A DNA stretch of 64,000 nucleotides from Candidatus Dojkabacteria bacterium (GTDB lineage Bacteria > Patescibacteriota > Dojkabacteria > B142 > JAFGFJ01). The stretch lies in the NCBI GenBank assembly GCA_016931155.1, contig JAFGFJ010000006.1, positions 314,896 to 378,895 of the forward strand, in the 5' to 3' direction. The translations under genes and the position numbers were made by a program. Of this stretch, positions 5,766-55,538 are shown piece after piece. Within the stretch, counting starts at the first letter, position 1. Every line of letters begins with the position of its first letter. The notes under the pieces are model-generated. The model saw only the letters and a program-made list of their open reading frames with translations. It did no database searches and was not told the origin of the DNA.

Positions 5766-5794
5766 TTGCGGGTGGTTGACCCAACTAATATAAT
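5766..5794 (+). promoter_or_regulatory. Candidate sigma70-like promoter for tuf (TTGCGG-N17-TATAAT)
   Basis: -35-like ttgcgg at 5766-5771, 17-nt spacer, perfect tataat at 5789-5794, ~63 nt upstream of the tuf ATG. Confidence 0.4.
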
Positions 5795-5857
5795 GAGGAG
5801 TTTTTGATTTAAGAGTATTTAACTCCAAACGTATTATTATTTTTAAAATTACAAAAA

Positions 5858-12042: not shown

Positions 12043-12464
12043 TGTTGCAGCCTAAAAAAACAAAATATAGAAAACAGTTCAGAGGAAAGAGAGGGGGTAC
12101 GGTAGTAAAAAAAGGTGCTTTTATTACTATGGGTGATTATGCACTTCAGGCTATTGAGAGATCCTGGATAACAGAAAGGCAGATTGAATCTGCTAGAAAG
12201 GCAATTGTTAGGGAAACGAAAAGAAAAGGTAAGTTGTGGCTAAAGATCTTCCCAGACAAACCTTACACAGGAAAACCGGCGGAAACCAGAATGGGAAAGG
12301 GTAAGGGGGACGTTGTTGGATATGTCTCAGTAGTTAAGCCAGGCAGGGTACTGTTTGAGCTGGGTGGGGTTACTGAAGAAACTGCAAGAGAAGCGTTTAG
12401 GGTAGCTGGTCATAAGTTACCTATTAAGACTCAGTTTGTAACCAGAATACAACAAACAAGATAA
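12042..12464 (+). CDS. rplP: 50S ribosomal protein L16
   Basis: [19 protein letters not shown] signature. Confidence 0.95.
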
Positions 12465-12465
12465 A

Positions 12466-12753
12466 ATGAAACCAAACGAACTTAGAAAATTTAGTAAAAA
12501 GGAGCTTGAGGAAAGGTTGGTTAAAAAAGCTGAAGAATTAGAGAGCAAGAAGTTTGAAGTCAGGATGAAAAAAGATAATGATTATGCAAGCTTGAAATTT
12601 TTGAAAAAAGAATTGGCAAGAATAAATACAATTATAAAGGCAGGTTCGTTTGCCATTGATGATATAAAGGATAAGGTGGAAAAGAAGACTGTGAAGAAAG
12701 AAACGAAGAAAAAAAACAGTATTGTGAGGAAGGATAAAGAACCTGATAAGTAA
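12466..12753 (+). CDS. rpmC: 50S ribosomal protein L29 with Lys-rich C-terminal extension
   Basis: MKPNELRKFSKKELEERLVKKAEEL L29 N-terminus; position between L16 and S17. Confidence 0.85.
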   Translation: MKPNELRKFSKKELEERLVKKAEELESKKFEVRMKKDNDYASLKFLKKELARINTIIKAGSFAIDDIKDKVEKKTVKKETKKKNSIVRKDKEPDK

Positions 12754-12782
12754 TCAGTAAATAAATATTTTTAATATAAGAA

Positions 12783-13094
12783 ATGGCAACAAAAGCAGAA
12801 AAAATAACAAAGAAGTTAAAAACAAAGAGAGTTGAGAAATCTCAGCAGAAGATAGCAAGAATAAAAACAGGAATAGTAGTAGGCAATAAGGCACAAAAGA
12901 CCTTGAGAGTGAGGGTTGAAAGGAAATTCTCTCACCCTTTGTATACGAAGATTGTAAAGAGGCACAAAAATTATCTTGTTCACAGTAATGAGCAGGTTGA
13001 GGTTGGTAAAATAATAAGATTCAAAGAGGTTAAGCCCATCTCAAAAGCAAAGAAATGGGTACTAATTGATGTATTAGAAAAGAAACAAATATGA
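12783..13094 (+). CDS. rpsQ: 30S ribosomal protein S17
   Basis: [32 protein letters not shown]. Confidence 0.93.
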
Positions 13095-25399: not shown

Positions 25400-26095
25400 A
25401 TGAAAAAAATTACGGTTATTATATTCGCTGGAATTGTCCTTCTAGGGCTTGCTGTTTGGTCACCATGGAACAGGCTGGATTTCTCTTGGCAAAGACTTCT
25501 GGGAATTGAAAAGCCGGAAGGTATGGCAGGGCTTACAGTCTATTCACTTGGGGGGAATATGGAGGTAAAAATAGATGGAGAGTTGAAGGGAGAAGTAAAT
25601 CTTGCCAATTCTCCTCTTGAAATACACGATGTTGTTCCTGGTGAGCATAAAATTGAGTTAATTAGAAAAGGTTCACAGGATAACATTTATGCCGAGTATT
25701 TTAAAAATTTAAATTTTGAGGGTAACATAAATTCAATACTAAGTTATGAGCTTGGACCAACAGAAGAGTATAGTTCGGGCTATGTATTTTATGCTGTATC
25801 CAAAGGGAATTATGATGCTCTTGCTAGTTTGTCTGTGGTATCAAGACCTGAGCAGGCAAAGATCTTTCTAGATGGAATAGATGTGGGAAATGCTCCTTTA
25901 AGAGATGTAAAAATTTCTCTCAATCAATTACATAGGCTCAGGTTTGAGAAGGAGGGATTTGAATCACTTGAATTTGAAATTTTACCAAAGGAACAGGCAG
26001 ATCGAGATAAGCTTAAAGATTATAGTCTGGCAGTTGAGGCTCGACTGTTTAAGCTTCCAATAAATATAGTAGAGGAAGTATCAAATGAGAAATGA
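25400..26095 (+). CDS. Secreted/anchored PEGA-domain protein (two PEGA-like repeats)
   Basis: N-terminal signal anchor; LTVYSLGGNMEVKIDGELKGEVNLANSPLE and SRPEQAKIFLDGIDVGNAPL resemble the PEGA beta-strand motif. Confidence 0.55.
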   Translation: MKKITVIIFAGIVLLGLAVWSPWNRLDFSWQRLLGIEKPEGMAGLTVYSLGGNMEVKIDGELKGEVNLANSPLEIHDVVPGEHKIELIRKGSQDNIYAEYFKNLNFEGNINSILSYELGPTEEYSSGYVFYAVSKGNYDALASLSVVSRPEQAKIFLDGIDVGNAPLRDVKISLNQLHRLRFEKEGFESLEFEILPKEQADRDKLKDYSLAVEARLFKLPINIVEEVSNEK

Positions 26096-29000
26096 AGCTA
26101 ATAAGCTAAAAAGTACGAGTAAATACCCAACCTCAATAATTGTTAAGGGTGTTGATACCATTGGTGTAGAGCTTGCAGGTTCACTTATTGAACAGGGGGG
26201 GTATGTAATTATGATAGACACCTACAATGAGGAATCTTTCGGGAAAATAAAACATCTGTTGGAAAAAGATCTGTTTACATTTGTTGATTTTTCAGCTCTT
26301 TCTCATCTGGAAGATGATTTGAGGAGATTGGATTATGTTTTTTTTCTGGGACATCAGGAGACTGACATCGAAAATGAAATTTCTACTCAAGAATTTCTCG
26401 AAGTATCAAATTACTTGAATGCGATTCTTGACCTTTCAACTAAATTTGAAGCTAAATTCTTATTAACAAATTCGATAAGAGCACATAGGAGACTGATAGG
26501 AGAGCAGGACGTTCATCTCAATTTTGATCTAGAAAAGACTAAAAAACACACGGTATATTCAGAAGTTGAAATTCAAAGATATGCAGAAAGTTTGGTGATG
26601 GAGTACTACGAGAAGGTTTCTTTGAATGTAAGAATTTTGAGAATGGGAGAAGTAATTGGTGAGGCTGTTGAGTTTAAAGAAAAGACTCCTCTTGGAAAGC
26701 TTATATTTGATGCAATATCAGGAAATGACCTAGAGATAACTGGTGATGGTCTTGATGAAGAGTATTATGTTCATTATCTTGATGCTGTTTACGGATTATT
26801 GAAGGGTGAATTTACTCCAAATACTAAGGGGAAGATTTTTTCGTTGGCAAATCAAGAGCCGGTTACTACATTATCTTTAGCGTATAAGGTTCAGGAATTA
26901 GAGCCAAAGGCTGGAGAAATAAAATTTGTAGAAAAAAAAGGTCCACTGTCACTCAAACTATACAAGCCAGCTGAAAACCTGGCAGTTATCGGCTGGAGGC
27001 CAAAAGTATCTTTTGACAGAGCCCTGTCACAGTCTATTGAACAAGCATATAACCACTTTAGTATCGAATCTTCTAGTCAGGTGGAAGATGTAAGGGATGA
27101 AAAAAAGAATGATGTGCTTTCCAAAAAACTTAAAAACTTCTTTTTTATCTCAGACAATAACGGAGAAAAGGAGGATACATATAAGCCAAAAGGAGAAGGC
27201 TATGGTGCTCTTTCGAGACTTATTGCAGAAAGAAAATCTCAGGAAATGGGAAGAAAAGGTAGCATTGTTCTGGCAAATGACAAACTAAGAGAAAAGGTCA
27301 AGGGTCAAAATCAGAAACCTGCTATTCAAAGATTGGGTACTAAAGCAAATAAGTTTTATGACAGAATTAAGGTTCAGTTTAATTTCCTTACTAGATTGAC
27401 TCTTAGTGAATTTGCTCTCTATTTGTTTCTTGTAATGATTTTGGCAGTGGTATATTTCGGAGTAGTATCTCCATTACTTAGTCTTGGTAAAGATGTGTAT
27501 TTTGGGAACAGAAATCTTGAAGAAGCAAAAAATAGATTTATTAGTAATGACATAATTGGTGCTAGGGAATCTGCCAAGAGTTCTCTCAATAACTTTGATG
27601 CTGCAGAGAAAACACTAAACAGATTTGAAGCATTTTTTAATCTTGTTTCCCAGAAAGAAGTATTCATTTCAGGGACTACTCTCCTGAGAGGAGCAAAAAT
27701 GTACTCTGAAGGTCTTGAACAATCATTCTCAGCTGTCTCTCCAGCGTACGAGTATTTCGAGAAGTTTGAAGATAATGTCTATTACAGACCGAATGACGGG
27801 AATCTTCTTGTTTCTGAGTCCAGTGCCGATTATTCAGAGTATCTTCAGAAGATGTCAGGAATGGAGATAGTAGCAGATGATGGGATCAGCAAAATAGTAT
27901 CAGCAACAGCTCTTATGTCAACTGCAAGAAAGAACTATTTACCTAAAACAGTAATAGAAAAAATAAATTCTATTGTAAATAATATTGATGAGACTGAGGC
28001 TGAGCTTCAAAGTGCAAAAAAAACGATTAGATATTTACCTGATCTACTGGGAGGAGATGGCCCAAAATCTTACATTATTATTCTCCAGGATAACTCAAGA
28101 TATAACCCTTCAGGAGGCAAAATCAATTCATATGCTTTCTTAACATTTGAAAAAGGTGGTTTAAAATCTATTAAGGTTGAAAATGCATCCAGCCTAAACC
28201 TGTCATTTGATAGGTTGAATCCAAAAACACTTGACCAGATCAATCTGATTTCGTTTCAGAATCTAAAAGTAGAGGACGTAACTCTCAGTGATTTTCAGCT
28301 CATAAATGATTTTGATCTGTTTAGCAGTGAAATTATTCCTTACCTTGAAAATTATTTTGAGAGGGATATTGATGGCGCCATATTTTTAAATATTAACAGT
28401 CTTGAAAAATTAATTGAATTGTATGGCGGAATTGAAGTCGAGCAAATTGAATTTGACGGGAAAAATCTTCTGATGAATGTTGATCTGGTTCTAAGAGACA
28501 ATAGGGAGGAAAATAGAAGAACAGAGATTATTACTCAGGTATTTGCGCTTGTGCTTCAGAAAATATTCACTTCAACAGGAGAAAAAACGCTGGAACTTGC
28601 TTCTCTTTCAAATGTTCAGCTGGAAGTAAAGGATATGATGCTTCAGTTCGAGGGTGAATATTATCAGGAGCAGATTGAAACAAATAATTGGAATGGGAGG
28701 TTTAACAACAACTCAGATTTTATTAAGATTGCAGTGGTTTCAAAGGCAAGGGAATTTTCTCAAACAAAATATCCTAACTTAAATATTGATATAAATGATA
28801 GGTTGAAGTCTGACTTAACAACTGTTAAACAAGTTACAATTGAACCTAAAAGTCTTGAAGATCTTGATTATGTGACTGTATGCCTTCCTGCTGGAGCTAC
28901 AGAATTAAATTTTGGTGAAATTAATCCTTTACTGTACAACCAGAATTTTAGTGCTGGAAATGAGTGTGTGAGTATAAAATTTGGTCAAATAAGCAGGGCT

Positions 29001-29234
29001 GTGATATCATACAAGACCCCAGCTTTTGAAAGTGTAAGGGGCAATAGTTACAATTACAACGTAAGTATCCAAAATACTCCTGGACTCAATCTGATTTATG
29101 ATTATGAGTTGGAATTTGATCCGGGTTTGTACCCTCTTGAGTATGACGATAGAGGATTCCTCCAAAGAGATAAGCTGATATATGCAGGTACTCTTGATGG
29201 AAATTTAATTTTGAATTTAAAATTCGGAAGATGA
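26085..29234 (+). CDS. 1049-aa bitopic membrane protein: N-terminal degenerate NAD-dependent epimerase/dehydratase-like (Rossmann) domain, one TM helix (~aa 440-470), large C-terminal exported domain of unknown function
   Basis: IVKGVDTIGVELAGSLIEQGGYVIMID replaces the GxxGxxG motif; YSEVE replaces the catalytic YxxxK; GDGLDEEYYVHYLDAV replaces GDGxQxRDFxYVDD; TM segment FALYLFLVMILAVVYFGVVSPLLSL. Confidence 0.5.
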   Translation: MRNEANKLKSTSKYPTSIIVKGVDTIGVELAGSLIEQGGYVIMIDTYNEESFGKIKHLLEKDLFTFVDFSALSHLEDDLRRLDYVFFLGHQETDIENEISTQEFLEVSNYLNAILDLSTKFEAKFLLTNSIRAHRRLIGEQDVHLNFDLEKTKKHTVYSEVEIQRYAESLVMEYYEKVSLNVRILRMGEVIGEAVEFKEKTPLGKLIFDAISGNDLEITGDGLDEEYYVHYLDAVYGLLKGEFTPNTKGKIFSLANQEPVTTLSLAYKVQELEPKAGEIKFVEKKGPLSLKLYKPAENLAVIGWRPKVSFDRALSQSIEQAYNHFSIESSSQVEDVRDEKKNDVLSKKLKNFFFISDNNGEKEDTYKPKGEGYGALSRLIAERKSQEMGRKGSIVLANDKLREKVKGQNQKPAIQRLGTKANKFYDRIKVQFNFLTRLTLSEFALYLFLVMILAVVYFGVVSPLLSLGKDVYFGNRNLEEAKNRFISNDIIGARESAKSSLNNFDAAEKTLNRFEAFFNLVSQKEVFISGTTLLRGAKMYSEGLEQSFSAVSPAYEYFEKFEDNVYYRPNDGNLLVSESSADYSEYLQKMSGMEIVADDGISKIVSATALMSTARKNYLPKTVIEKINSIVNNIDETEAELQSAKKTIRYLPDLLGGDGPKSYIIILQDNSRYNPSGGKINSYAFLTFEKGGLKSIKVENASSLNLSFDRLNPKTLDQINLISFQNLKVEDVTLSDFQLINDFDLFSSEIIPYLENYFERDIDGAIFLNINSLEKLIELYGGIEVEQIEFDGKNLLMNVDLVLRDNREENRRTEIITQVFALVLQKIFTSTGEKTLELASLSNVQLEVKDMMLQFEGEYYQEQIETNNWNGRFNNNSDFIKIAVVSKAREFSQTKYPNLNIDINDRLKSDLTTVKQVTIEPKSLEDLDYVTVCLPAGATELNFGEINPLLYNQNFSAGNECVSIKFGQISRAVISYKTPAFESVRGNSYNYNVSIQNTPGLNLIYDYELEFDPGLYPLEYDDRGFLQRDKLIYAGTLDGNLILNLKFGR

Positions 29235-29695
29235 AACATAAGACTGTAATAACGAAAGAAGGTTTAAAGGATTTGAAAAATGAGCTTGATACCAGGAAGG
29301 ATAAGTTGAAAGAGATTGCTGATAAAATTGATGAGGCACGTCAGCAGGGAGACCTTTCTGAGAATGCTGCTTATACTACGGCTCTTTCAGAGAAAGAAAT
29401 GAATGAGGCGAAAATTAAGGAACTGGAAGATAAAATAAGTGGCTCGATAGTAGTTGAAGCTGATCCTTTAAATCCAGAAGTTGAACTTGGCGAGAAGGTT
29501 CTGGTGCGGCGGAGTTCTGATAACAAAAGGTTAACATATGAAATTGTTGGGATTGAAGAATCCAATCCGAGTGAAGGGAAAATATCTATAGGCTCTCCTA
29601 TTGGCAAGGCTTTGGCACATAAGAAGAAGGGAGATAAAGTAAAAGTTAAACTGCCATCTGGAGAGGAGGAGTTTTTAATTGAGGAAATTGCATAA
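29231..29695 (+). CDS. greA: Transcription elongation factor GreA
   Basis: ITKEGLKDLKNELD...QQGDLSENAAYTTA coiled-coil plus FKBP-like C-terminal domain. Confidence 0.88.
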   Translation: MKHKTVITKEGLKDLKNELDTRKDKLKEIADKIDEARQQGDLSENAAYTTALSEKEMNEAKIKELEDKISGSIVVEADPLNPEVELGEKVLVRRSSDNKRLTYEIVGIEESNPSEGKISIGSPIGKALAHKKKGDKVKVKLPSGEEEFLIEEIA

Positions 29696-29715: not shown

Positions 29716-30981
29716 ATGGAAAGACATTCAGTGCCCCAAAATATTATGGATGTCGAGTTCAAGCTTTTTGGAAGCCTGACCGTAAGACAGTTCGCTAACC
29801 TTGCAGGATCTATTGTCGTTGCGGTTATTTTATATTTTTTTAATATTCCCGGAATTATCAAATGGCCAGCAATCGTCGGTTTTGTTTTCTTGGGCATAAG
29901 TTTGGCACTGGTTAAGATAAATGGTCAAACATTTGGTACTTGGCTTGGCAATTTTCTGGCTTCTATGTTTAGTTCCCAGAGGAAAATATGGAAGAAAGAT
30001 CCGAAAGTTCCTGAGATACTTACAAAGACTTACCGTCCACGAGTAAGTAATGAACAGCTTGTTTCTGCGAAGAAAAAAGAGTTACCTCCTTTTCTACGTG
30101 AGGATATAATTCAATCTACAAACGTAGTAGATGAAGAGGAGGAAGAGCGGCTAAAGAAATTAGAAAAATACATTCTTGGTGGTACCTCTTCAACGATAAG
30201 TGAGCAATTAATTTCAGACGAAGAAAAAGCACAACGACCGGTAATAATTGATCCTTCAGATCAAAATCTTGCTGGCACAATGAATACGGCAAATGAGGAT
30301 AATTATTCTATAAATCAGTCGGACGAATTCGCAGTAATTGGAAAGAAGATGGCTAATCAGAGAGAGCGACCGATAAGCTCAAGACTTGTGCATAAGAACC
30401 TTGCGGAAAACATAGGAATTGCTGTAAGTGAAGATACTAAAGAGTCCGGTTTGGGCAAGGAAAAAGAAAAAAAGTCAGAAATAGGTTATCTTTCTGAGAA
30501 ACCTGTTAATGATATGAACAGAGGATTAGATGTGAAAAGGAGTTCTTCCGACGAATTGATAGAGGCTAATAAAATACTGCAGGAAAGGATACAGGAACTT
30601 ACAGAAAAAGCGAAAAAATCTCCTGATGACTCTCAGATAGCTCAAAAACTTGCAGAGATGGAAAAACGTCTGGTGGAAATTCAGTCGGGAGGTTCGTTCG
30701 CTAATGAAAAAATAGTATCTCAAAAACCAAATGTTATTAGTGGTATAGTAACTGATAAAGAAAATAAATTACTTCCTGATGTTAGGGTGTTGATTAAGGA
30801 CAGAAGGGGTTTTTTGGTTAGATCACTGATTACTGATAAGCAAGGTTACTTTGTTACGACAACTTCACTTCCTGACGGCGATTATTTAGTTGAATTTGAA
30901 AGCGATAGACATCCTTTTGACCAGTATAAAGTTAACCTGAACGGGTCTTTGAAAGATACGTATAAATTTACTGCCAGATGA
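29716..30981 (+). CDS. VirB3/PrgI-like membrane protein fused to a long linker and a C-terminal carboxypeptidase-regulatory-like beta-sandwich domain
   Basis: N-terminus VEFKLFGSLTVRQFANLAGSIVVAVILYFF plus a second TM, as in the PrgI family; C-terminus ISGIVTDKENKLLPDVRVLIKDRRGFLVRSLITDKQGYFVTTTSLPDGDYLVEFE resembles a CarbopepD_reg/Big-like fold. Confidence 0.55.
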   Translation: MERHSVPQNIMDVEFKLFGSLTVRQFANLAGSIVVAVILYFFNIPGIIKWPAIVGFVFLGISLALVKINGQTFGTWLGNFLASMFSSQRKIWKKDPKVPEILTKTYRPRVSNEQLVSAKKKELPPFLREDIIQSTNVVDEEEEERLKKLEKYILGGTSSTISEQLISDEEKAQRPVIIDPSDQNLAGTMNTANEDNYSINQSDEFAVIGKKMANQRERPISSRLVHKNLAENIGIAVSEDTKESGLGKEKEKKSEIGYLSEKPVNDMNRGLDVKRSSSDELIEANKILQERIQELTEKAKKSPDDSQIAQKLAEMEKRLVEIQSGGSFANEKIVSQKPNVISGIVTDKENKLLPDVRVLIKDRRGFLVRSLITDKQGYFVTTTSLPDGDYLVEFESDRHPFDQYKVNLNGSLKDTYKFTAR

Positions 30982-31000
30982 TTTATCTTATTAGTTAATA

Positions 31001-31684
31001 ATGGCGTTTTTAGGAAGAAAAGAAACAACAACTCAGGAACATCTTGATATTGAGGATGTCAGAGATGATCTTGTTGTGTTAAAAAATGGTAACGTTTCTC
31101 TTGTTATGGAGACGACTTCTTTGAACTTTGATCTTCTTTCGGAAGAGGAACAGGATATACGAATTCTTGCCTTTGCAGGGCTTATGAACTCATTGAATTT
31201 CCCTGTACAGATAGTTGTTAGAACAGAAAGAACAGACGTAACTGATTATGTAGATAAGCTAAAGATCTATAAGGAAAAACAGATTTCGTTGGCCTTAAAA
31301 AGACAAATAGAGATTTACATGCAATTTATTAAGAATCTTACTGTGAACACCGAGGTTCTTGATAAAAGATTCTTTGTTGTTATACCAGGAATAATATCAA
31401 GTATACAAAGAACTAGTGCTGTGAGACAGATCTTCGGTAAACCAGTAAAAATTAAAAATATCGAGGAGGTGCTTGAAAAAGCCAAATTACTTCTTTATCC
31501 AAAACGTGATCATCTGCTGAAGCAGTTTCAAAAAATGGGGATAATTGCAGAGCAACTAAAAACTGATGATTTAATACGTTTGTATTACGGTATTTATCAA
31601 CCGGATACTCCTGGAATTAAGAAATTAATTTTGAAAAAACAGGATTTTTCTACTGGGATTGTAGAAACTTTAAAAGAAGAATAA
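31001..31684 (+). CDS. Possible N-terminal fragment of a VirB4/TraE-like conjugation ATPase (separate ORF, different frame from the ATPase body)
   Basis: LDIEDVRDDLVVLKNGNVSLVMETTSLNFDLLSEEEQDIRILAFAGLMNSL resembles the conserved N-terminus of Gram-positive VirB4 homologues; ends 4 nt before the next ORF. Confidence 0.4.
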   Translation: MAFLGRKETTTQEHLDIEDVRDDLVVLKNGNVSLVMETTSLNFDLLSEEEQDIRILAFAGLMNSLNFPVQIVVRTERTDVTDYVDKLKIYKEKQISLALKRQIEIYMQFIKNLTVNTEVLDKRFFVVIPGIISSIQRTSAVRQIFGKPVKIKNIEEVLEKAKLLLYPKRDHLLKQFQKMGIIAEQLKTDDLIRLYYGIYQPDTPGIKKLILKKQDFSTGIVETLKEE

Positions 31685-31688
31685 CAAT

Positions 31689-33635
31689 ATGTGGATATTT
31701 GGAAAAAGCAAAAAAGAAAAGGAAAAAGAGAAGGAACAGACAAGTCAGTCAGAGGATCTTGAAGAGAAGGCAATTGAAAAATTCGCTGAGGGATTGATTG
31801 ATGTAAAAGATCTGATAGCTCCGTCAGCGATGGAGGTGGATTTTAACGATGTTCTTGTAGGAAATAAGTACTTTAGAACTTTCCTTGCTACTGGATTTCC
31901 AAGCCATGTCGGACCAAATTGGCTTTCTCCACTTATCAATTTTGACTTTCCTGTAGATATAAGCACGTTTTATTATCCTGTGGATAGTTCAATGATAATG
32001 CAAAGACTCAAACGAAAGATTGGAGAAATGGAGGCAACAATCAGTCTTGATCTTGAAGCAGGAAAAGTGGTTGATCCATATGTTAAGGTTGCACTTGAAG
32101 ATGCAAAGAATTTACAGGAACAAATAGCAAAAGGTACAGAGAAATTTTTTCACTTTGCTCTTTATGTAACTATTCGAGCAGGCAGTATCAGGGAGCTTGA
32201 AAAAATCTCGAAGAATCTTATTTCAACAATGTCTTCTATTAGTGTGATTCTAAAGGTGGCTACTTTGCAGCAGGAACAAGGTTTTCAGAGTGTTGTACCT
32301 GTAGGAATAGACAAGATCTATATGACCAGAAATATGGATACGACCTCTTTGGCGACCACATTCCCATTCGTTAGCTCAGAGCTTACTATGGATACTGGTA
32401 TTTTGTACGGAATAAATAAACACAATAGAAGTCTTGTGATTTTTGACAGGTTTGAACTTGAAAATGCTAATGCAGTTGTTTTTGCAACTTCCGGGGCGGG
32501 AAAAAGTTATATGGTAAAGCTTGAGGCTATGAGAAGTCTTATGTTCGGGACTGAAATACTGATAATTGATCCCGAAAGAGAATATGAGAAGCTAACGAAA
32601 ACAATTGGAGGAGAATACGTATCGTTTTCGCAAGATGGCGCGCAAAAATTGAATCCATTTGAGCTTTCAGGAATTTATGACAAAGATGAAGACGAGCTAA
32701 GAATGAAAATTCTATCACTTCACGGCCTTATGAGGATTATGATGGGTGGAGATTTTTCTCCGGAAGAATCTGCAATACTTGATAGGGCACTTATTTTGAC
32801 GTATAAAGAAAAAGGCATTACGGTTGATCCTGTCACACACAAAAAAGAACCACCTCTTCTTGAGGATTTATATAAGATTCTCCAGGCAATGGCAGAGCCT
32901 CAAGCTCATAATCTTGCGACAAGACTTGAGAGGTTTGTAAGAGGAAGTGCAGCTGGTATTTTTGACAGAAAATCAAATATTGAGATTAAGAATACATTTA
33001 CTGTTTTTAGTATTCGAGAGTTGAGTGATGACCTAAGGCCTATAGCAATGTATATGATGCTTGATTTTATTTGGACAAGAGTGAAAAGACTTCGAAAGAA
33101 AAGACTTCTAATAGTGGATGAGGCATGGTGGATGATGCAGTATCCAGATGCAGCAAAATTTATCCACTCAATGGCAAAAAGAGCCAGAAAGTACGGTCTT
33201 GGGCTTACTACAATTACTCAAGATGTTGAGGACTTTTTGAGTACGGATTACGGGAAAGCTGTTGTTACAAATTCATCAATACAAATATTAATGAAGCAAA
33301 GTCCTGTAGCTATAGATAAGATTCAGAAGATATTCTATTTGTCTCAAGGTGAGAAGAACTATCTACTTTCAGCAGGTATTGGGGAAGGTCTATTCTTTGC
33401 CGGATCAAATCATGTGGCAATTCAGGTAATTGCGAGTGAAAATGAGCATAATCTAATAACTACATCTTATAAAGATATGGAGAAAGAGGAGAAGAAAAAA
33501 GCGGCATTGGCAGAAGAAGCTGTAAAAAATGCCGGAATTGGTATTGCAGATATTCCTGAAAATACAAACCAGCAAGTTTCCCCTACTGATAATATTAATT
33601 CCTATACTGGTAATACTTCTTCCAATGCGGTATAA
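31689..33635 (+). CDS. VirB4/TrbE/PrgJ-like type IV secretion ATPase (AAA_10 domain)
   Basis: Walker A FATSGAGKSY, Walker B LLIVDEAWWMM; upstream region IAPSAMEVDFNDVLVGNKYFRTFLATGFPSHVGPNWLSPLI matches the VirB4 family motif. Confidence 0.7.
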   Translation: MWIFGKSKKEKEKEKEQTSQSEDLEEKAIEKFAEGLIDVKDLIAPSAMEVDFNDVLVGNKYFRTFLATGFPSHVGPNWLSPLINFDFPVDISTFYYPVDSSMIMQRLKRKIGEMEATISLDLEAGKVVDPYVKVALEDAKNLQEQIAKGTEKFFHFALYVTIRAGSIRELEKISKNLISTMSSISVILKVATLQQEQGFQSVVPVGIDKIYMTRNMDTTSLATTFPFVSSELTMDTGILYGINKHNRSLVIFDRFELENANAVVFATSGAGKSYMVKLEAMRSLMFGTEILIIDPEREYEKLTKTIGGEYVSFSQDGAQKLNPFELSGIYDKDEDELRMKILSLHGLMRIMMGGDFSPEESAILDRALILTYKEKGITVDPVTHKKEPPLLEDLYKILQAMAEPQAHNLATRLERFVRGSAAGIFDRKSNIEIKNTFTVFSIRELSDDLRPIAMYMMLDFIWTRVKRLRKKRLLIVDEAWWMMQYPDAAKFIHSMAKRARKYGLGLTTITQDVEDFLSTDYGKAVVTNSSIQILMKQSPVAIDKIQKIFYLSQGEKNYLLSAGIGEGLFFAGSNHVAIQVIASENEHNLITTSYKDMEKEEKKKAALAEEAVKNAGIGIADIPENTNQQVSPTDNINSYTGNTSSNAV

Positions 33636-33643
33636 ATAAAAAG

Positions 33644-34204
33644 ATGTTTCCACTAGATATTTTTACAAAACAATTCAACCTGAGTGGGCTAGTACTTATA
33701 GCCTCTGTTGCTATTTTTTCTTTGGCAGTAATTATTCTTTTGGTGAATGTTGTTATATTAAACAGGAAGCTAAAAAAAGCTACTACACCGACGTATGGTT
33801 TTGCAGGAAAGCCAATATATCCCATTATTGCAACATTGCTAATATCTGTATCTATACCTCTAGCTGTATATTCTTTATCTCAGGAGACTACTTTTGAACA
33901 AAAAGCAGAAGAAAATGTGATTCTACAGAGTAGTCATTATGTGGTATCAAGAGATGGGGAGAATTTACGGCTTGAGTTTAATGTTGTTCCATATGTAGAT
34001 GGGGTAGCTTGGGGAGAAAAGTCGTTTGATATTTTCTGGTCATTTAAGGGAAAAACATCCAAAACTAGCTATGAGTTTAATAAATCTGCGATTAATCCCA
34101 GTAAAATGACAATTACTTTGCCAAAAGGTGAGTATGATCTTACTATTCTTGTTACTTATGAGAATAGATCTCAGAGGTTAGAACAAAAGCTTGTTCTAAA
34201 ATAA
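33644..34204 (+). CDS. Small two-TM membrane protein with beta-rich C-terminal domain, cotranscribed with the VirB4-like gene
   Basis: Two hydrophobic helices (LVLIASVAIFSLAVIILLVNVVIL; IYPIIATLLISVSIPLAVYSL); starts 9 nt after the VirB4-like stop. Confidence 0.45.
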   Translation: MFPLDIFTKQFNLSGLVLIASVAIFSLAVIILLVNVVILNRKLKKATTPTYGFAGKPIYPIIATLLISVSIPLAVYSLSQETTFEQKAEENVILQSSHYVVSRDGENLRLEFNVVPYVDGVAWGEKSFDIFWSFKGKTSKTSYEFNKSAINPSKMTITLPKGEYDLTILVTYENRSQRLEQKLVLK

Positions 34205-34223: not shown

Positions 34224-34229
34224 TAATTA
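34224..34229 (+). promoter_or_regulatory. -10 box (TATAAT, with upstream TGn-like tgtgcgtgc) for rnpB
   Basis: gctataatta immediately 5' of the P1 helix of the RNase P RNA. Confidence 0.5.
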
Positions 34230-34234
34230 TTTCG

Positions 34235-34627
34235 GTCTAGTCAGAACGGTCGCTAAGCGTGAGCTTAGAGGAAAGTCCGAACTCCTCTTGGCACAATAGT
34301 CAGGACAAGGTACCTTGGAGACAAGGCAGGGAGTGATCTCTGGGATTAGAGCAACAGAAAGTAAGGAGCCTGCGAATTGCAGGCGATCTTGAAAGGGTGC
34401 CTCCGGGTTTTTCTGGGGGGCGTACATGAAATTTCATGTATGACGTGTAAGAGACCACCGGTCACGATAGTAATATCGAGATGCTGGTAATCCCTATCGG
34501 GAGCAAGATCAAAGTGTAGATCGCAAAGTGTTTGTTCTTTTGATTAATCAGAACAAATACTGCTAGAGAAATGACCGTCATTCTGGTGTTGCCAGAAAGA
34601 ACAGAATTCGGCTTATTGACTAGACCA
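34235..34627 (+). ncRNA. rnpB: RNase P RNA, bacterial type A-like
   Basis: Universal motifs read in sequence: AGAGGAAAGUCCGAACUCC (P4 5' strand), GUAAGAGACCACC, ACAGAAUUCGGCUUAUUGACUAGACC (P4 3' strand plus P1); the 5' GGUCUAGUCAG pairs with the 3' UUGACUAGACC to form P1; no ORF of significance. Confidence 0.88.
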
Positions 34628-34734
34628 TTTTTTCAACCACTTCAGGAGTATTTCCATTTGGGTGCATAATACTTCCTGTATAGAAACCATTATTTCTTGA
34701 AAATTTCAATTTACAGTGGGAACACATAGATACA

Positions 34735-39274: not shown

Positions 39275-40033
39275 CTAGAGTTCCAAAGCAATTACCACAA
39301 TTCTGTTGTCACTTCCCCCGGGTACTCCTGATTGAAGTGAACAGGATATTATCTTGATAAAGTTTCGTTTTGATGTTTCGTAAATATTTACGTCGTTCGG
39401 ATTTTTTATTGTGACACTCCGAACTGAGTATCTTATTGGCTTTCCTGATGGATCATTTACCTGAATTAGATCACCCTTTTCTAGAAGATTTATATTCCAG
39501 CAACTTCTTGGGTCATCTTGTTGAAAGTATCTTCTGTGGCATAGTACTATTGTTTCACCGTTTCCAGGAGTACTGGAAGATGGATACATCCAAAATCCTT
39601 GATCCATTAGAGAATCACCATCGCTTCCCCCGAACACATTTGCTCTCACATTTATTTTTGGAATGATTAACTCTCCAATTACTCCTGTTGTAACTTTGGT
39701 ATCGAATGCAAACTTTTGTTGCTCAGGCGAGAGAATATCATCTCTTGTATATATTTTCTCTTTATTCAATTGACTGTCTTGAGCAGTGGAAGTATCTTCT
39801 GTACTGCTTTTTTGTTTCTCTTCTTCCACCTTCTTAACCTCTGACATTGAAGGAACTAAAAAATTATATCCGTACTTCTGCCTACCATTTTCTCCTTTTA
39901 AAAATACTGAAATAAGGCTTATATGTGTTGTTCTTGCCTTTGTGTATAGAAAAAGTCCGCTAACAATAAGAAAGCTTAGTATAAACAAAATAAAAATCAC
40001 CTTTGTTGTTGAATCTTTTTCCTCGTTTTCCAT
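39275..40033 (-). CDS. Sortase-family transpeptidase (membrane-anchored)
   Basis: N-terminal TM; beta6/beta7 region GFWMYPSSSTPGNGETIVLCHRR matches the sortase pattern (h-YP-x-PG-x-GN-x-h-h-x-HR), downstream IKIISCSLQSG matches the TLxTC catalytic Cys, followed by a conserved Arg. Confidence 0.65.
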   Translation of the reverse strand: MENEEKDSTTKVIFILFILSFLIVSGLFLYTKARTTHISLISVFLKGENGRQKYGYNFLVPSMSEVKKVEEEKQKSSTEDTSTAQDSQLNKEKIYTRDDILSPEQQKFAFDTKVTTGVIGELIIPKINVRANVFGGSDGDSLMDQGFWMYPSSSTPGNGETIVLCHRRYFQQDDPRSCWNINLLEKGDLIQVNDPSGKPIRYSVRSVTIKNPNDVNIYETSKRNFIKIISCSLQSGVPGGSDNRIVVIALEL

Positions 40034-40105
40034 TCCGAATTATATCACAGGAAACTATTGTAGTTATATATTTAATATTGTTCAAAACGCTAATACGATG
40101 ATATA

Positions 40106-41092
40106 ATGCATTATTCCAATATAAAAACAATGAGGAAGGAATTTGATGAGAAAAAAGTGAGGCTGGCTCTGATGGTTTGGGGATTTATGGTTATCCTTAT
40201 TGGGCTTATTATTGGAATTGTGACGGTTGGACCACAGCTTACTCCGCTTGAGGCACAAGGACAGATTTGCACGACTGGTGCAGATTGTCCTCCTTGTGAA
40301 TATCCACAGGTAGCTTTCTGCGACCATAGCGGATCTTCCAATCCTTGTCGTTCAGGAGAGGGTATATGTACATGTAGAGGCGTACCTCAAAGTGACCCAA
40401 CTTGTGGAGGTGCTGTTTGTATCTCAATTTCTCCGAGTGAGGCATGTGATCCTGGTGGGTGTCCTTCGGGTTACACTGACTGCGGGATAAGTGGTCACAG
40501 AACTGATAATTCTTCAGAATGTCAAGCTTTTGGCAGTTGTACTACTAGATGTGCTTCGTGTAATAACCCAACTACATTTGTTAGATATTGCAGACCGGAA
40601 GTTTCACCTGTTGAACCATCACCGTCACCGTCACCGTCACCATCACCGTCGCCCTCCTACCCAGACTATGAAATAGTAAAGGATGTTATTGACTCAGATA
40701 GTTTTTACGAAATAGGGGAGACTGTGAACTTTAGTGTTACAATCAGAAATACAGGGGATGTAACATTTGAAAAGGTAAAATTTAGGGATGTGTACAATCC
40801 TGCACGATTGGATTATCTATCTAGTCGTGGTAATAAAAATGGTGGCACAGACGTAGAGTTAAATTTCAATATTATTGAAAGTACTGGAATTATAACTCAT
40901 TCAAACCTTGCGGTAGAGTTGGGAAATTTGAATCCTGGGGATTACTATCGAATATTTTTTAGCTTTAGAGCTTTGGTAAGTGTTCCGAGAACATGCAACG
41001 AAGCCTTTGTTAATCCTGATGATTTGGGTGAGAAAAGGGACGATGCTTGTGTCTCGATTAATACTGTGTTTATTCCCGTACCTGATTTATAA
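40106..41092 (+). CDS. Secreted/anchored cysteine-rich protein with (SP)7 linker and C-terminal DUF11-like (conserved repeat) beta-domain
   Basis: Signal anchor, then ~25 Cys in ~110 aa (CPPCEYPQVAFCDH...CTTRCASC), PSPSPSPSPSPSPS, then a TIRNTGDVTFEKVKFRDVYNP DUF11-like motif. Confidence 0.6.
   Translation: MHYSNIKTMRKEFDEKKVRLALMVWGFMVILIGLIIGIVTVGPQLTPLEAQGQICTTGADCPPCEYPQVAFCDHSGSSNPCRSGEGICTCRGVPQSDPTCGGAVCISISPSEACDPGGCPSGYTDCGISGHRTDNSSECQAFGSCTTRCASCNNPTTFVRYCRPEVSPVEPSPSPSPSPSPSPSYPDYEIVKDVIDSDSFYEIGETVNFSVTIRNTGDVTFEKVKFRDVYNPARLDYLSSRGNKNGGTDVELNFNIIESTGIITHSNLAVELGNLNPGDYYRIFFSFRALVSVPRTCNEAFVNPDDLGEKRDDACVSINTVFIPVPDL
40616..40657 (+). repeat. Tandem 6-nt repeat (ccatca/ccgtca)x7 encoding (Pro-Ser)7 linker
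   Basis: Direct read: cca tca ccg tca ccg tca ccg tca cca tca ccg tcg ccc tcc. Confidence 0.9.
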
Positions 41093-41682: not shown

Positions 41683-42507
41683 CTAACTTGATAGTCCTTG
41701 CAGGATAACTAGACTTAATAGCAATACAACGAGATATTCCAGTAACACCTCTTTTTTCAAAGAACCTTCGAGTTTGTGATGAAGAATTGCACTCGTAATA
41801 TAGAAAACCAGTAGGGTGTATGAGGAAGTCGCAAGAATCGAAAAGTTCGTATACGAGCTTAACGCAACTACTGTTTCAATAATTACTAAAGTGGTAATTA
41901 GATTGAAAATAATAGTTAAATAATTGAACTGATTTCTTCTTATCGTGACAATAGTATTGATCATGAATGCTGTCATTCCAATAAGAACGTAAGAAAGAAA
42001 AGGATCAAAACCAAAGTAATTTATAGTTTCAAGAATTGTGTTTGTAAGCTGGAAAAAAGTGATAAATTTGATAATGTCATATATGTAATGAGTTCTTTCT
42101 TCCAATTTGAATTTGTCTTCATAATATGCCCTGATATTAATGAACATTAATGTAAATATGAAAAAGCAAATAAAGAAGAAGAAATACTTGGGAAGTGTCA
42201 GGTGGTAGTAATATATTATTCCCAAGCAAGACATATATAGAGCAGTAGGCAGTAATAAGTGATGTGTAAATTGACTGAATTTAGAATAGGTATCAACCTG
42301 TGGTATTTCCATTTGAGCCAGGATTTTTTTTGAGTATATTTGGCTTGTCAGTACCTCGAAAACAAATACCAGATAAAGGATTATGCTTGCGATGAAGAAT
42401 AATTTTTGTTCCAGATTTATCATGAGCTCAACAAGAAATATGAGACCGATTGAGATGAAAAAACCGTAAAAGATTCCTCTTCTATTGTTTATTAAAAAGT
42501 TCTTCAT
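41683..42507 (-). CDS. Hypothetical polytopic membrane protein (~8 TM)
   Basis: Hydropathy only; no recognisable motif. Confidence 0.4.
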   Translation of the reverse strand: MKNFLINNRRGIFYGFFISIGLIFLVELMINLEQKLFFIASIILYLVFVFEVLTSQIYSKKILAQMEIPQVDTYSKFSQFTHHLLLPTALYMSCLGIIYYYHLTLPKYFFFFICFFIFTLMFINIRAYYEDKFKLEERTHYIYDIIKFITFFQLTNTILETINYFGFDPFLSYVLIGMTAFMINTIVTIRRNQFNYLTIIFNLITTLVIIETVVALSSYTNFSILATSSYTLLVFYITSAILHHKLEGSLKKEVLLEYLVVLLLSLVILQGLSS

Positions 42508-43952
42508 TTTGTTAACCCTTCAATTATCGTCCCACCTGCTCCTCCAATAAGTACCATCAAAAGCAGAACAATGAAATTTGAAATATGCAAATGATGCTTC
42601 CCTCTTTCTTTATAGCCCAGGGGAAGATTTGTCCTGGCAAGGAGTAGGGCATCAAAAACAAAGAGTGAGACTATAATGAGAAGTGCAGTAATACTTACAA
42701 CATTTTTTACGCTTGGAAACTCTCGAGCAATAATACTTATCAGTTTATTTGTTGCGATTTCTTTTGAGGAAAGAGTTTCCATTGTACTCAATACATTTCC
42801 TGTTTCAATGGTTGAAGATGTGATGTTTCCAGCTTTGTCAATCGCAGTAATTGCTAGCGTGTTAGAAGATTCAGTAATGGGTCTTGCTATGTCTACTTCC
42901 CAGTAATCAGAATAAGGTATGCGAACAAAATTTTTCTCTTCTTCGTTACTGTATAGATATACTTTTTCGGTGTCATCGGAAATAAGTATTCTGAGACGAT
43001 AATTATCAATATTTTCTGTTGACAATATTTCTAACAAATCTGTGTTTATTACTGGTGCTTGAGTGTCTACAACTACGCTAACTATACTTGATTTTTCGCT
43101 GGAAACCCCATGCTCGTCTATGGAATATGAAGATATCAAATGATTCCCCTGTTCAAAAGGTTTGTCTGATGGTGGCTTGTATATAAAGATACCCCCTTGT
43201 GCATCAATATCAGCAATGTTTTTTTCATTGTCAATTATTTTTACTTTTGTTTCCTTTTTTGCTCGACCTCTTATCGTGAAAAATTGATCGTTTGTCCAGG
43301 TACCATTCTCAGGCTCTTCAATTAAGGGGGTATTTTGAATGTCATTTGTTGGAAGTGCTTCTTTCACCTGATGTTTTGAATCACTTGTTATTGGAAGCGC
43401 ATTATAGGAGTTAACTTGAGAGCCGAAATGAACGACAACTACTACATTATTGGGGTTTCCCTGGAAGTTACCCTGAACAATGGAAATACCTATCTCTCTG
43501 AACTCTGGTTTCAGCATATTATCTCTATGACTGGGACTATTCATCCATGCCTGTACTACAGCTTCGTTATCATTAAAACCTTCTGCAAGGTTCTCTCCTG
43601 CATAAATATATTCATAATTCTGATCCTTGAAAAAATCCCAAGGCGATTTCTTATCGGGACAATAGTGAGACCAGCAGTCAGAAGCAAGCATTGCTTTAGC
43701 TTTTTCTGACGCAGAATTAGTCAGTTTGCTGCTAACTACTAATTTCGAAAGTCCTCTGCTGGTTCTTTCTTTATTATGAAGGCTGACAAGTATGGAAGTA
43801 TCGATCGCTGCGTAAGCTTTAGATATCGGTAAGCTTCCCACAGTAATATTAAAAATGAAGAGGATTAGAGTAAAAATGGCTAGACTTCCTTTTCTCAGAA
43901 GAAGTGGATAGTAATTATTTGTTTTAGTAGGAATGAATAAGTTTTTGATCAC
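42504..43952 (-). CDS. CAP/SCP (cysteine-rich secretory protein, YkwD-like) domain protein with N- and C-terminal TM anchors
   Basis: LHNKERTSRGLSKL..., YAGENLAEG..., AWMNSPSHRDNML CAP signature motifs. Confidence 0.7.
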   Translation of the reverse strand: MIKNLFIPTKTNNYYPLLLRKGSLAIFTLILFIFNITVGSLPISKAYAAIDTSILVSLHNKERTSRGLSKLVVSSKLTNSASEKAKAMLASDCWSHYCPDKKSPWDFFKDQNYEYIYAGENLAEGFNDNEAVVQAWMNSPSHRDNMLKPEFREIGISIVQGNFQGNPNNVVVVVHFGSQVNSYNALPITSDSKHQVKEALPTNDIQNTPLIEEPENGTWTNDQFFTIRGRAKKETKVKIIDNEKNIADIDAQGGIFIYKPPSDKPFEQGNHLISSYSIDEHGVSSEKSSIVSVVVDTQAPVINTDLLEILSTENIDNYRLRILISDDTEKVYLYSNEEEKNFVRIPYSDYWEVDIARPITESSNTLAITAIDKAGNITSSTIETGNVLSTMETLSSKEIATNKLISIIAREFPSVKNVVSITALLIIVSLFVFDALLLARTNLPLGYKERGKHHLHISNFIVLLLMVLIGGAGGTIIEGLTK

Positions 43953-54240: not shown

Positions 54241-54320
54241 TGAGTAGCTATCTCCGAAGCACTTCAAGTCTCTGTGCATGAGTAGCTCTTCCCGCAGCAC
54301 TTCAAATTCCTGTCGTAAGT
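54241..54320. repeat. Imperfect tandem duplication (~38 nt x2, ~80% identity) spanning the stop codon and 3' end of the 424-aa ORF
   Basis: tgagtagctatctccgaagcacttcaagtctctgtgca followed by tgagtagctcttcccgcagcacttcaaattcctgtcgt. Confidence 0.7.
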
Positions 54321-55538
54321 AGACGGGTCACCGTTCTTTACGTATTTTAAGACCTTTCCGCAGATGTCACATCTCACCGGGTCGGGTCTGTCAGGGGTTG
54401 GTTGAGGTTCAAACCCCGGATTCAATATCGAGTTTACTCTTCCGAATGTGCTGAACTTTTCCGATATACCGCAGGCGCTCATCACATAACCTTCTTGTCT
54501 CATAAGTCTGGCTTGAGCATATCTATCCATTTTTTGAAAATCTGAGAAACCTCCATCTTGATCGTAATTAATCCCTGTTTCTAGCTTCATTACATCATGT
54601 ATATATTTTCTAAATCCGAACTGCAGGACTGCCATTGTTTCATTGATGAAGGAAAGTTCTTTAGAAATATTTTCCCCTTTATTCAATTTTGCGGCCGTCG
54701 CCGTAATCAATGTTCTAAATTCCTCCCTGACTCTTTCCCAAACAAACGTCTTTGCATAAGCCTCAATTAATCTAATTTTCATTTCTTCGAGACCTTTTGT
54801 TCTTTGTTCTATAAAATCGGTTATGATTCTGAGTTTGTTGTCATCAAAGAAGCCTGATGATGCCATTATGCTTAAATCTGAAAGATTATTGCTGTCTGTA
54901 TTAATTGCCAATTCATTCAGTAGTTCCTCATAATCAAGAGTCGAAGTTGCGGGTAGCCATTTTTGTATAACTTTCTCGGTACCATTTTCATTTATAAATA
55001 AAAAGATGGTGTCGTTCCCCAGATAACCTCTTTTTTTTGCTTCTTCGGTAAGTGGCGGGCTTGGGCTGAATTCTACAAAATTTCTTTTATCTCCCATCTG
55101 TCTTGCTCTTCTGAGTTTTTCATAATTGCTCAGATTTATTGTGTTTCTTAAGATTTCAAATTCAGGAATTTGCCCGCTCGCATTATTTATTGCTTCTCTA
55201 TAGATTTCGTCAAGTGTTCTGTTTCCTGTTGCGAGCTTCCACGGTAAATTGCTCTTATCCCAAGGGAGGCTGTATTCATATATTGCAGTAGTTTCTGCGA
55301 TGGGATGCTCAACGATCTGGGTGTATATGTCGGTAAGGCTTTCTGTCAATGCAATGTTCAACAATGCCTCCCTTTCCTCTCCTCCAGCAGATTGGATAGC
55401 TTTTAGAGCCTGAAGTACATAGTTTATTGAGTTTGAGTATCTGTTTGAATACTGCGCCCTGATAGAATCCATACTTAAATCTGCTTTATTGATCGCAAAT
55501 CTCGACGGTTGTATTTCCTGTATGGCTGTTTCGCTCAT
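54264..55538 (-). CDS. Hypothetical protein with C-terminal Cys cluster (CDICGK...CCGKSYSC)
   Basis: Long ORF with coding-like composition; no recognisable family. Confidence 0.4.
   Translation of the reverse strand: MSETAIQEIQPSRFAINKADLSMDSIRAQYSNRYSNSINYVLQALKAIQSAGGEEREALLNIALTESLTDIYTQIVEHPIAETTAIYEYSLPWDKSNLPWKLATGNRTLDEIYREAINNASGQIPEFEILRNTINLSNYEKLRRARQMGDKRNFVEFSPSPPLTEEAKKRGYLGNDTIFLFINENGTEKVIQKWLPATSTLDYEELLNELAINTDSNNLSDLSIMASSGFFDDNKLRIITDFIEQRTKGLEEMKIRLIEAYAKTFVWERVREEFRTLITATAAKLNKGENISKELSFINETMAVLQFGFRKYIHDVMKLETGINYDQDGGFSDFQKMDRYAQARLMRQEGYVMSACGISEKFSTFGRVNSILNPGFEPQPTPDRPDPVRCDICGKVLKYVKNGDPSTYDRNLKCCGKSYSCTET

Follow-up and report, generated by a model that had tools for sequence, protein, structure and literature searches.

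A 64-kb stretch of Candidatus Dojkabacteria bacterium DNA (the window, in whose positions all coordinates are given) carries a compact group of genes at 29716-34204 that resemble components of a type IV secretion system (T4SS), one of which is fused to an apparent beta-sandwich domain. We were interested to determine what kind of machine these genes might form and on which side of the membrane the fused domain would lie. The original prediction for this locus envisioned a module of VirB3 and VirB4 only, of a poorly understood type found in the candidate phyla radiation (CPR), in which VirB3 displays an Ig-like domain outside the cell. From the analyses described below, we consider it about 75% probable that the region encodes the cytoplasmic-membrane core of a Patescibacteria-type T4SS, which is derived from monoderm MPF-FATA systems, chromosomally fixed, and non-conjugative, and in which the VirB3 tail lies in the cytoplasm beside the ATPase. 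The system itself is already known, but it contains an undescribed, albeit common, variant of one subunit, VirB3. What is new here is a subfamily of long-tailed VirB3 proteins ending in a sandwich, a Dojkabacteria-specific gene (gene D), and a set of conserved neighboring genes.

Identification of a four-gene T4SS core

The module had been described as three co-directional genes. The open reading frame (ORF) listing contains four, all intact and on the + strand, the overlooked member being a TrsD-like ORF of 227 amino acids at 31001-31684:

29716-30981, + strand: gene A, 421 amino acids, PrgI/VirB3-like membrane anchor with a 330-amino-acid C-terminal tail
31001-31684, + strand: gene B, 227 amino acids, TrsD-like, homolog of the VirB4 N-terminal domain
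31689-33635, + strand: gene C, 648 amino acids, VirB4-family ATPase
33644-34204, + strand: gene D, 186 amino acids, two-transmembrane protein with a predicted Ig-like ectodomain

The genes are tightly packed, with intergenic gaps of 19 nt (A-B), 4 nt (B-C), and 8 nt (C-D). A promoter/terminator scan was uninformative in this AT-rich DNA, with 49 promoter-like sites observed versus 36.5 expected and no terminators between the genes. Minus-strand ORFs within the region are short and overlap genes A-D.

A survey of 3,035 Patescibacteria genomes has described a monophyletic VirB4 clade nested in MPF-FATA, whose members are chromosomal, are rarely accompanied by relaxases, and are commonly partnered by TrsD, PrgI/VirB3, VirB6, and VirB2-like pilins, with PrgI, TrsD, and VirB4 being the commonest adjacent T4SS components (Quinonero-Coronel et al. 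2025, PMC12102498). The window has this same trio clustered on the chromosome, in the order PrgI/VirB3, TrsD-like, and VirB4, with no relaxase nearby. The order is also that of S. epibionticum, a cultured Saccharibacterium in which SEML1_0010 (PrgI family, 300 amino acids), SEML1_0009 (TrsD-like, 293 amino acids), and SEML1_0008 (VirB4, 612 amino acids) are all essential for epibiotic growth (Wang et al. 2023, PMC10633639), and a 2025 review regards the Patescibacteria T4SSs as the first that are essential for their owner (PMC12857230). Consequently, the notion of a CPR-type core devoid of relaxase and VirD4 holds, but the core is not restricted to VirB3 and VirB4, as it includes TrsD, and it belongs to a type that has already been described and whose homologs are essential in S. 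epibionticum. The synteny comparison covered 42 non-redundant loci, drawn from GTDB species genomes and metagenomes and labeled for the most part Dojkabacteria/WS6; 35 of them had enough downstream sequence to be judged. The PrgI-TrsD-VirB4 trio was present in 27 of these 35 loci, the PrgI gene being directly upstream of trsD-virB4 just as in the window, and a gene D homolog followed directly in 19 of the 27.

Several further features link the locus to, or separate it from, the best known relatives. The PrgI of S. epibionticum is likewise long (a domain at residues 5-90 plus a tail), and its essential T4SS operon also encodes SEML1_0005, a PEGA protein, and the prealbumin-like SEML1_0004 (PMC10633639); a PEGA protein is encoded alongside the Dojkabacteria locus as well. 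Unlike in S. epibionticum, whose PrgI tail is helical, the tail here ends in a transthyretin-like sandwich; an extra conserved gene (gene D) follows virB4; the genes for VirB6, an NTF2/VirB8-like protein, a lysozyme/peptidase, and the PF18895 pilin array are not beside the core; and the locus, instead of lying at dnaA/dnaN, follows greA and the rpoA/ribosomal cluster. Among the MPF-FATA systems of Firmicutes, the TrsC-TrsD-TrsE proteins of pGO1/pSK41 and PrgI-PrgJ of pCF10 similarly place a two-transmembrane VirB3-like protein beside VirB4 in a monoderm, and the pGO1 type has a separate TrsD related to the VirB4 N-terminus. However, those systems are plasmid-borne and conjugative, they are equipped with a relaxase, a coupling protein, VirB6/VirB8-like proteins, and hydrolases, and their VirB3 proteins are small with short tails (PrgI is about 117 amino acids).

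Gene A encodes a long-tailed VirB3 ending in a beta-sandwich

Gene A matched the Pfam PrgI family (PF12666) over residues 6-90 with 41.2 bits, above the gathering score of 27, and matched CarboxypepD_reg (PF13620) over residues 341-398 with 30.9 bits, which is slightly under the cut-off of 32.3 that its homologs do exceed (36.2 and 34.1 bits). Its parts are as follows:

29731-29985, + strand: PrgI/VirB3 domain (residues 6-90), with the conserved N-terminal motif HSVPQNIMDVEFKLFG, a transmembrane hairpin, and an amphipathic helix
29800-29919, + strand: transmembrane hairpin (residues 29-48 and 50-68, from hydropathy)
Residues 73-85, + strand: amphipathic helix within the PrgI domain
29986-30732, + strand: linker (residues 91-339), variable, rich in E/K/S, and without a hydrophobic segment (from alignment, composition, and AlphaFold2)
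30733-30978, + strand: transthyretin-like (CarboxypepD_reg-type) beta-sandwich (residues 340-421), probably cytoplasmic

An AlphaFold2 model built upon a 94-sequence alignment had a mean predicted local distance difference test score (pLDDT) of 73.9, with confident domains at both ends of the protein. The PrgI domain consists of helices at residues 23-41, 46-65, and 73-85 (pLDDT 92-97), and together with hydropathy this reproduces the two-helix transmembrane hairpin followed by an interfacial helix that is seen in PrgI/VirB3. Most of the linker was modeled as disordered; its structured elements are residues 131-154, which form a conserved acidic helix, residues 196-210, a small hairpin, and residues 278-324, a helical hairpin (pLDDT 84-90). 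Residues 340-421 form a beta-sandwich (pLDDT 96-98) with the seven-strand prealbumin-like fold, for which Foldseek gave a probability of 1.00 to 3mn8, 3e8v, 5aq0, and others, with an E value of 1.9e-5 for 3mn8 and a target-normalized TM-score of 0.77 for 3e8v. The structural matches include extracellular proteins (carboxypeptidase D, CnaB2, SdrD, and pilins) as well as the cytosolic HIU hydrolases 2h0e and 3qva; the sandwich has no sequence similarity to the neighboring PEGA protein. From these results, we can conclude that gene A encodes a VirB3/PrgI homolog with a two-helix hairpin in the membrane, and that the predicted combination of such a protein with a carboxypeptidase-regulatory-like sandwich was correct. 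At 421 amino acids, of which 330 belong to the tail, it departs from the typical VirB3, a small protein of 10-15 kDa with short cytoplasmic termini.

A homolog search with gene A returned at least 146 clusters at 90% identity, nearly all of which contain both PF12666 and PF13620, while an exhaustive search with residues 1-95 returned 1,596 representative clusters, 761 of them at E <= 1e-10. We surveyed length and domain content in the best 150 of these 1,596 representatives (50%-identity clusters). The PrgI domain is N-terminal in all 150, the median length is 366 amino acids, and 139 are at least 250 amino acids long. Of the 150, 122 end in the same sandwich, to within a few residues, and the remaining long representatives have tails without a Pfam domain, similar to Saccharibacterial PrgI. 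Given this fraction, the sandwich-ended VirB3 is, as judged by sequence, a large conserved subfamily and the majority architecture among the closest relatives, rather than a one-off. In general, a long VirB3 tail seems to be the norm in the closest relatives sampled. The taxon labels available for the sandwich-fused set comprise Dojkabacteria/WS6, "Patescibacteria group", and one Nomurabacteria. Thus, the fusion had been regarded as both undescribed and unusual, of which only the former seems to apply: the searchable literature yielded no discussion of a VirB3-sandwich architecture, and PMC12102498 does not contain any mention of the word carboxypeptidase.

Genes B and C appear to constitute a split VirB4

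Gene C matched the NCBIfam VirB4-like CD1110 model (NF045971) with 392.1 bits against a cut-off of 325, covering profile positions 178-734 of 752, and spanned positions 279-893 of VirB4_plasma. It also matched TraC, VirB4_CagE, AAA_10, and P-loop_TraG, and the solved structure closest to it is that of a VirB4 C-terminal domain, 4ag5 (E value 8.6e-47). Both nucleotide-binding motifs reported for it are present and intact:

32481-32510, + strand: Walker A, FATSGAGKSY (residues 265-274 of gene C)
33105-33137, + strand: Walker B, LLIVDEAWWMM (residues 473-483 of gene C)

Judging from the vertical synteny in Dojkabacteria together with PMC12102498, gene C would belong to the monophyletic Patescibacteria VirB4 clade. 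Gene C has no counterpart to the first ~177 positions in the full-length VirB4 profile, which means that the N-terminal membrane- and VirB3-binding domain is not in the same polypeptide. Gene B, in turn, matched NCBIfam TrsD/TraD (NF041427) with an E value of 4.6e-6 (26.6 bits, curated cut-off 200) and VirB4_plasma at profile positions 103-233 (E value 2.5e-6). All 26 of its positional homologs match both TrsD and VirB4_plasma, with best E values of 6.4e-10 and 5e-12, respectively, and precomputed matches to the TraC-like family PF26593 exist among its relatives. Since an hhalign comparison of TrsD with the local VirB4 family detected no similarity, gene B is not a duplicate of part of gene C. 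Because B and C tile the full-length VirB4 profiles and B is unlike the local VirB4 family, gene B would appear to supply the N-terminal domain that the VirB4 of gene C lacks. The split is natural and not a frameshift, since in one Dojkabacteria metagenome-assembled genome (L002) a NUDIX-like gene (12462-12995) is inserted between trsD and virB4.

Inheritance of the locus and T4SS components not seen in the window

The same chromosomal site and gene order recur in relatives at 25-63% protein identity, and the window contains no integrase, relaxase, or coupling protein gene, while the repeats detected by a scan were imperfect and at chance level, with none resembling att flanks. For these reasons, the locus is considered vertically inherited in Dojkabacteria and not a mobile element. 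The hallmarks of a conjugative element (relaxase, coupling protein, integrase, and att repeats) were not found, and the GC content is uniform at 35-39%. The surrounding genes are those of the core chromosome of a low-GC bacterium, including nusA, fusA, tuf, the ribosomal protein operon, rpoA, rplQ, a PMT-type glycosyltransferase, genes for a PEGA protein and a 1049-amino-acid epimerase-like/DUF4012 protein, greA, rnpB, a Zn peptidase, secA, a sortase, and further housekeeping genes.

VirB6, VirB8, VirD4, relaxase, and T4SS pilin had no Pfam match among the ORFs of the 64-kb window, in agreement with the original prediction; PF04610, PF18895, and PF04956 in particular were not matched, and no small pilin-like ORF with 2-3 transmembrane segments was present. 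Genes for VirB6-like proteins and VirB2-like pilins, which are frequent but not universal near virB4 in Patescibacteria-type loci, are therefore not seen here. Two side observations concern these components. A metagenome-assembled genome labeled Nomurabacteria (L042) has two PF18895 T4SS pilin genes at 61-794 (- strand), ~7 kb upstream of a core composed of PrgI-sandwich, TrsD, and a VirB4 of 797 amino acids; therefore, the sandwich-tailed VirB3 coexists with VirB2-like pilins in another class. In several relatives, a membrane-anchored CAP-domain protein (482 amino acids) and a polytopic DUF5656 protein (274 amino acids, ~6-7 transmembrane segments) are encoded directly after gene D, as in L002 (15737-18047), L029, L031, and L034, and the pair is also present in the window, 8 kb downstream on the opposite strand (41683-43952, - strand). 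The polytopic DUF5656 protein, encoded at 41683-42507 in the window, is a candidate VirB6-like component.

Location of the gene A tail

The sandwich had been placed outside the cell, whereas its topology features probably point to the cytoplasm. Gene A has exactly two transmembrane helices connected by a loop of ~4-8 residues, and none of 94 homologs contains a hydrophobic segment beyond the second helix. In the same homologs, the 40 residues past this helix are strongly positive (mean K+R 6.8 versus D+E 2.7), and residues 67-130 of the window protein (64 residues from the end of the second helix) include 13 K+R; the N-tail is neutral in charge. Cysteine is nearly absent from the sandwich. Both the N- and C-termini of VirB3 are cytoplasmic (PMC12857230), as is the case for the VirB3 of R388 in the summary of Mace et al. 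2022 given by that review, and natural VirB3-VirB4 fusions exist in which, as outlined in PMC12102498, the VirB3 C-terminus runs into the cytoplasmic ATPase. Taking together the two transmembrane helices, the absence of any later hydrophobic segment in the homologs, the positive flank, the N-in/C-in topology of VirB3, and the VirB3-VirB4 fusions, we consider the linker and sandwich of gene A to be quite probably cytoplasmic.

The same comparisons suggest how the parts might fit together. In R388, again as summarized in PMC12857230, the hairpin and interfacial helix of TrwM (VirB3) bind the N-terminal domain of TrwK (VirB4) 1:1 (Mace et al. 2022), and this is the likely docking mode here as well, even though R388 is described there as a diderm system with the full VirB1-11 set, a single-polypeptide VirB4 that includes its N-terminal domain, and a tail-less VirB3. 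The natural VirB3-VirB4 fusions, e.g. those of Campylobacter plasmids, illustrate that a large cytoplasmic domain can be appended to the C-terminus of VirB3; according to the outline in PMC12102498, the fused domain in those proteins is the ATPase, whereas gene A carries a linker followed by a beta-sandwich that is non-enzymatic, with VirB4 encoded separately. By analogy with R388 and pCF10, the gene A hairpin and its conserved N-terminal motif would anchor a TrsD/VirB4 assembly at the membrane, with VirB4 hydrolyzing ATP to power assembly or transport through an envelope channel, the remaining parts of which (VirB6-like proteins and VirB2-like pilins) may be encoded elsewhere or be too diverged to recognize. 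Because no relaxase or coupling protein is nearby, the machine is presumably not conjugative and, by analogy with S. epibionticum, could serve a host-dependent lifestyle, by building pili and/or transferring macromolecules where it meets the host. The tail and sandwich would then be tethered next to the ATPase, where they might act as a docking or regulatory module for a partner or cargo, although this is speculative.

No T4SS other than that of Patescibacteria is known to be essential for the growth of the bacterium carrying it, and VirB3 is the least understood of the conserved T4SS subunits. A well-folded sandwich that probably lies beside the ATPase thus offers a concrete handle on partner recognition by a T4SS lacking a coupling protein, and the fixed four-gene locus with its conserved neighbors provides a compact candidate set for Dojkabacteria. 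The classification of the system, already in the literature, is left unchanged by these findings.

Alternative interpretations of the locus

Several points weigh against a cytoplasmic-membrane T4SS core with an internal VirB3 tail. The TrsD score of gene B is far under its NCBIfam cut-off, and a PDB search with the TrsD profile found no solved structure resembling gene B by sequence. Genes for VirB6, VirB8, a pilin, VirB1, and a coupling protein are not recognizable in the 64 kb, so it is unproven that the machine is complete here, and even in a cultured relative the function of the T4SS has been called "completely unknown" (PMC11665869). In addition, sandwiches of the PF13620 and PEGA types are mostly extracytoplasmic, and the prealbumin-like SEML1_0004, which sits in the Saccharibacterial T4SS operon, is exported. 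On account of these last two facts, an outside location of the gene A tail is still compatible with the sequence alone, and gene A could conceivably be a VirB3-like protein that shows its linker and sandwich outside the cell, as an Ig-like wall- or host-binding module mounted on a T4SS core. Sandwiches of the CarboxypepD_reg, CnaB, and PEGA kinds typify surface proteins, as reflected in the Foldseek matches to CnaB2, SdrD, and pilins; the neighborhood is rich in surface proteins (PEGA, the DUF4012 protein, a sortase, and a DUF11 protein); and it is not only the exported prealbumin-like protein but also a PEGA protein that belongs to the Saccharibacterial operon. Nevertheless, we consider this arrangement unlikely, as the number of transmembrane helices is even with no later hydrophobic segment in the 94 homologs, the strongly positive flank of the second helix disfavors translocation, VirB3 is N-in/C-in with fusions to VirB4 known, and the sandwich is nearly free of cysteine and of a fold that is also found in cytosolic enzymes. 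Even with the tail inside, it is doubtful that it serves as the substrate or partner receptor of a coupling-protein-less T4SS, tethering cargo (host nucleic acid or an effector) at the TrsD/VirB4 motor while gene D, the PEGA protein, and the DUF4012 protein replace VirB6, VirB8, and the pilins.

The direction of transport is a separate matter. A relaxase and coupling protein were not found nearby, the Patescibacteria T4SS has been proposed as a candidate route of nucleotide acquisition (PMC11665869), and a cultured relative is reported to display pilus-like tubular structures at the host interface together with RNA feeding (bioRxiv 10.64898/2026.06.21.733656), all of which would suit a Ced- or ComB-like module that imports host DNA or RNA for a nucleotide-auxotrophic parasite. 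Gene C even matches CedB weakly (E value 2.6e-12), but with only 46 bits against a cut-off of 700, which amounts to generic VirB4 similarity, and CedD reached 31 against 600; CedA-like or ComB-like partners were not seen, and direction cannot be read from sequence. Import is thus a minor possibility, best treated as a sub-hypothesis on function that is compatible with the anatomy of a Patescibacteria-type core. The partial set of T4SS genes and the missing relaxase and coupling protein might alternatively be taken to signify a decaying, non-functional remnant of an integrated conjugative element. This is very improbable, given that the four ORFs are intact with conserved motifs, gene order and chromosomal site do not change across Dojkabacteria at 25-63% identity, the GC content is uniform, no integrase genes or flanking repeats were found in the window, and the homologs are essential in S. 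epibionticum. As for the ATPase itself, a HerA/FtsK-type translocase unrelated to type IV secretion could account for its weak match to DUF87, the HerA central domain (36 bits). The chance of such an identity is close to nil, as the P-loop_TraG match is much stronger (91.6 bits), the CD1110 score lies above its curated cut-off, TraC and VirB4_CagE also match, the best structure is a VirB4 domain, and PrgI-like and TrsD-like genes adjoin. A HerA/FtsK identity is refuted by the CD1110, P-loop_TraG, and 4ag5 scores, and gene C falls with VirB4, whose scores are far above those of HerA.

Gene D encodes a candidate extracellular component

The final gene of the module, whose product is annotated in NCBI as a hypothetical protein, was correctly anticipated to encode a small protein with two transmembrane helices. 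Its features are the following:

Residues 14-44: first transmembrane helix
33776-33814, + strand: conserved basic loop (residues 45-57), with the nearly invariant motif (K)P(K)YGF(L)GKP
Residues 58-79: second transmembrane helix
33917-34198, + strand: 7-strand Ig/FN3-like domain (residues 92-185), predicted to face outward

The flank of the Ig/FN3-like domain is acidic, and the domain should face outward. The matches from fold searches were all of a generic Ig/FN3 kind, and a VirB8-type NTF2 fold was not among them, so that with an Ig/FN3-like sandwich as its ectodomain gene D is not VirB8/PrgL-like, and a PDB sequence search with the gene D profile yielded nothing significant. A word-seeded homolog search with gene D alone found only gene D itself, while a profile of 20 positional homologs found 9 clusters, from which it follows that the gene is fast-evolving and lineage-restricted. 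Gene D is thus a Dojkabacteria-specific two-transmembrane protein with a predicted outward Ig-like domain, so that the real candidate for an Ig-like component outside the cell is this gene.

A strict coupling between the gene A sandwich and gene D, in which the sandwich binds the cytoplasmic loop of D, was rejected since each occurs without the other. Gene D is found beside A proteins without a sandwich in L010, L013, L018, and L035, and sandwich-bearing A proteins occur without D in L007, L008, L012, L020, and L042; in L033, A and D are together without VirB4.

Conserved neighbors, paralogs, and other features of the window

The module had been described as directly downstream of an envelope gene cluster. 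In fact, greA intervenes, and the entire order PEGA, DUF4012 protein, GreA, A, B, C, and D is conserved in relatives, with the first three found upstream in 24-25 of the 35 loci. The genes flanking the module are as follows:

25400-26095, + strand: exported PEGA-domain protein (Pfam PEGA), 231 amino acids, upstream in 24 of 35 loci; conserved neighbor, membership in the module uncertain
26085-29234, + strand: 1049-amino-acid single-transmembrane DUF4012 protein, upstream in 25 of 35 loci; conserved neighbor, membership uncertain
29231-29695: greA, upstream border of the module
34233-34631, + strand: RNase P RNA gene (rnpB), bacterial class A (134 bits), starting 28 nt past gene D

According to Pfam, the 1049-amino-acid protein has an N-terminal Rossmann/epimerase-like domain and a C-terminal DUF4012 domain, with its transmembrane segment at residues 434-469. 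In L007, the DUF4012 gene still lies immediately before the PrgI gene, although all other flanks differ and greA is missing. The PEGA and DUF4012 proteins may be accessory envelope parts of the machine, or they may merely reflect inherited gene order. Short minus-strand ORFs at 34227-34458 are not genes, because the RNase P RNA occupies 34233-34631.

Orphan PrgI-sandwich paralogs away from any VirB4 were counted in eight loci; those in Dojkabacteria-like genomes listed with neither TrsD nor VirB4 nearby are L030, L032, L033, L036, L037, L038, L040, L041, and L045. Their settings include ThrRS/CofD/CYTH genes in L036 and the genes for the CCA-adding enzyme and PNPase in L040, and in L033 the orphan is back-to-back with a gene D homolog. 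It should be noted that in candidate division WS6 OLB20 (L015, 6370-12026) two ORFs each take the place of the DUF4012 gene, the PrgI-fusion gene, and the TrsD gene, which indicates either assembly frameshifts or local gene decay.

Just past secA, a sortase gene and a gene for a DUF11/DUF7507 surface protein are arranged divergently at 39275-41092, within a neighborhood rich in surface-protein genes. The gap between fusA and tuf is unusually long (~555 nt, 5303-5857) and had no Rfam match; its sole ORF, encoding 89 amino acids with two hydrophobic segments (5622-5891, - strand), looks spurious. A cobalamin riboswitch (55594-55722, - strand, 60 bits) is located upstream of an ORF of 424 amino acids (54264-55538, - strand) that has no significant Pfam match and could encode a B12-related transporter or enzyme in this reduced genome.

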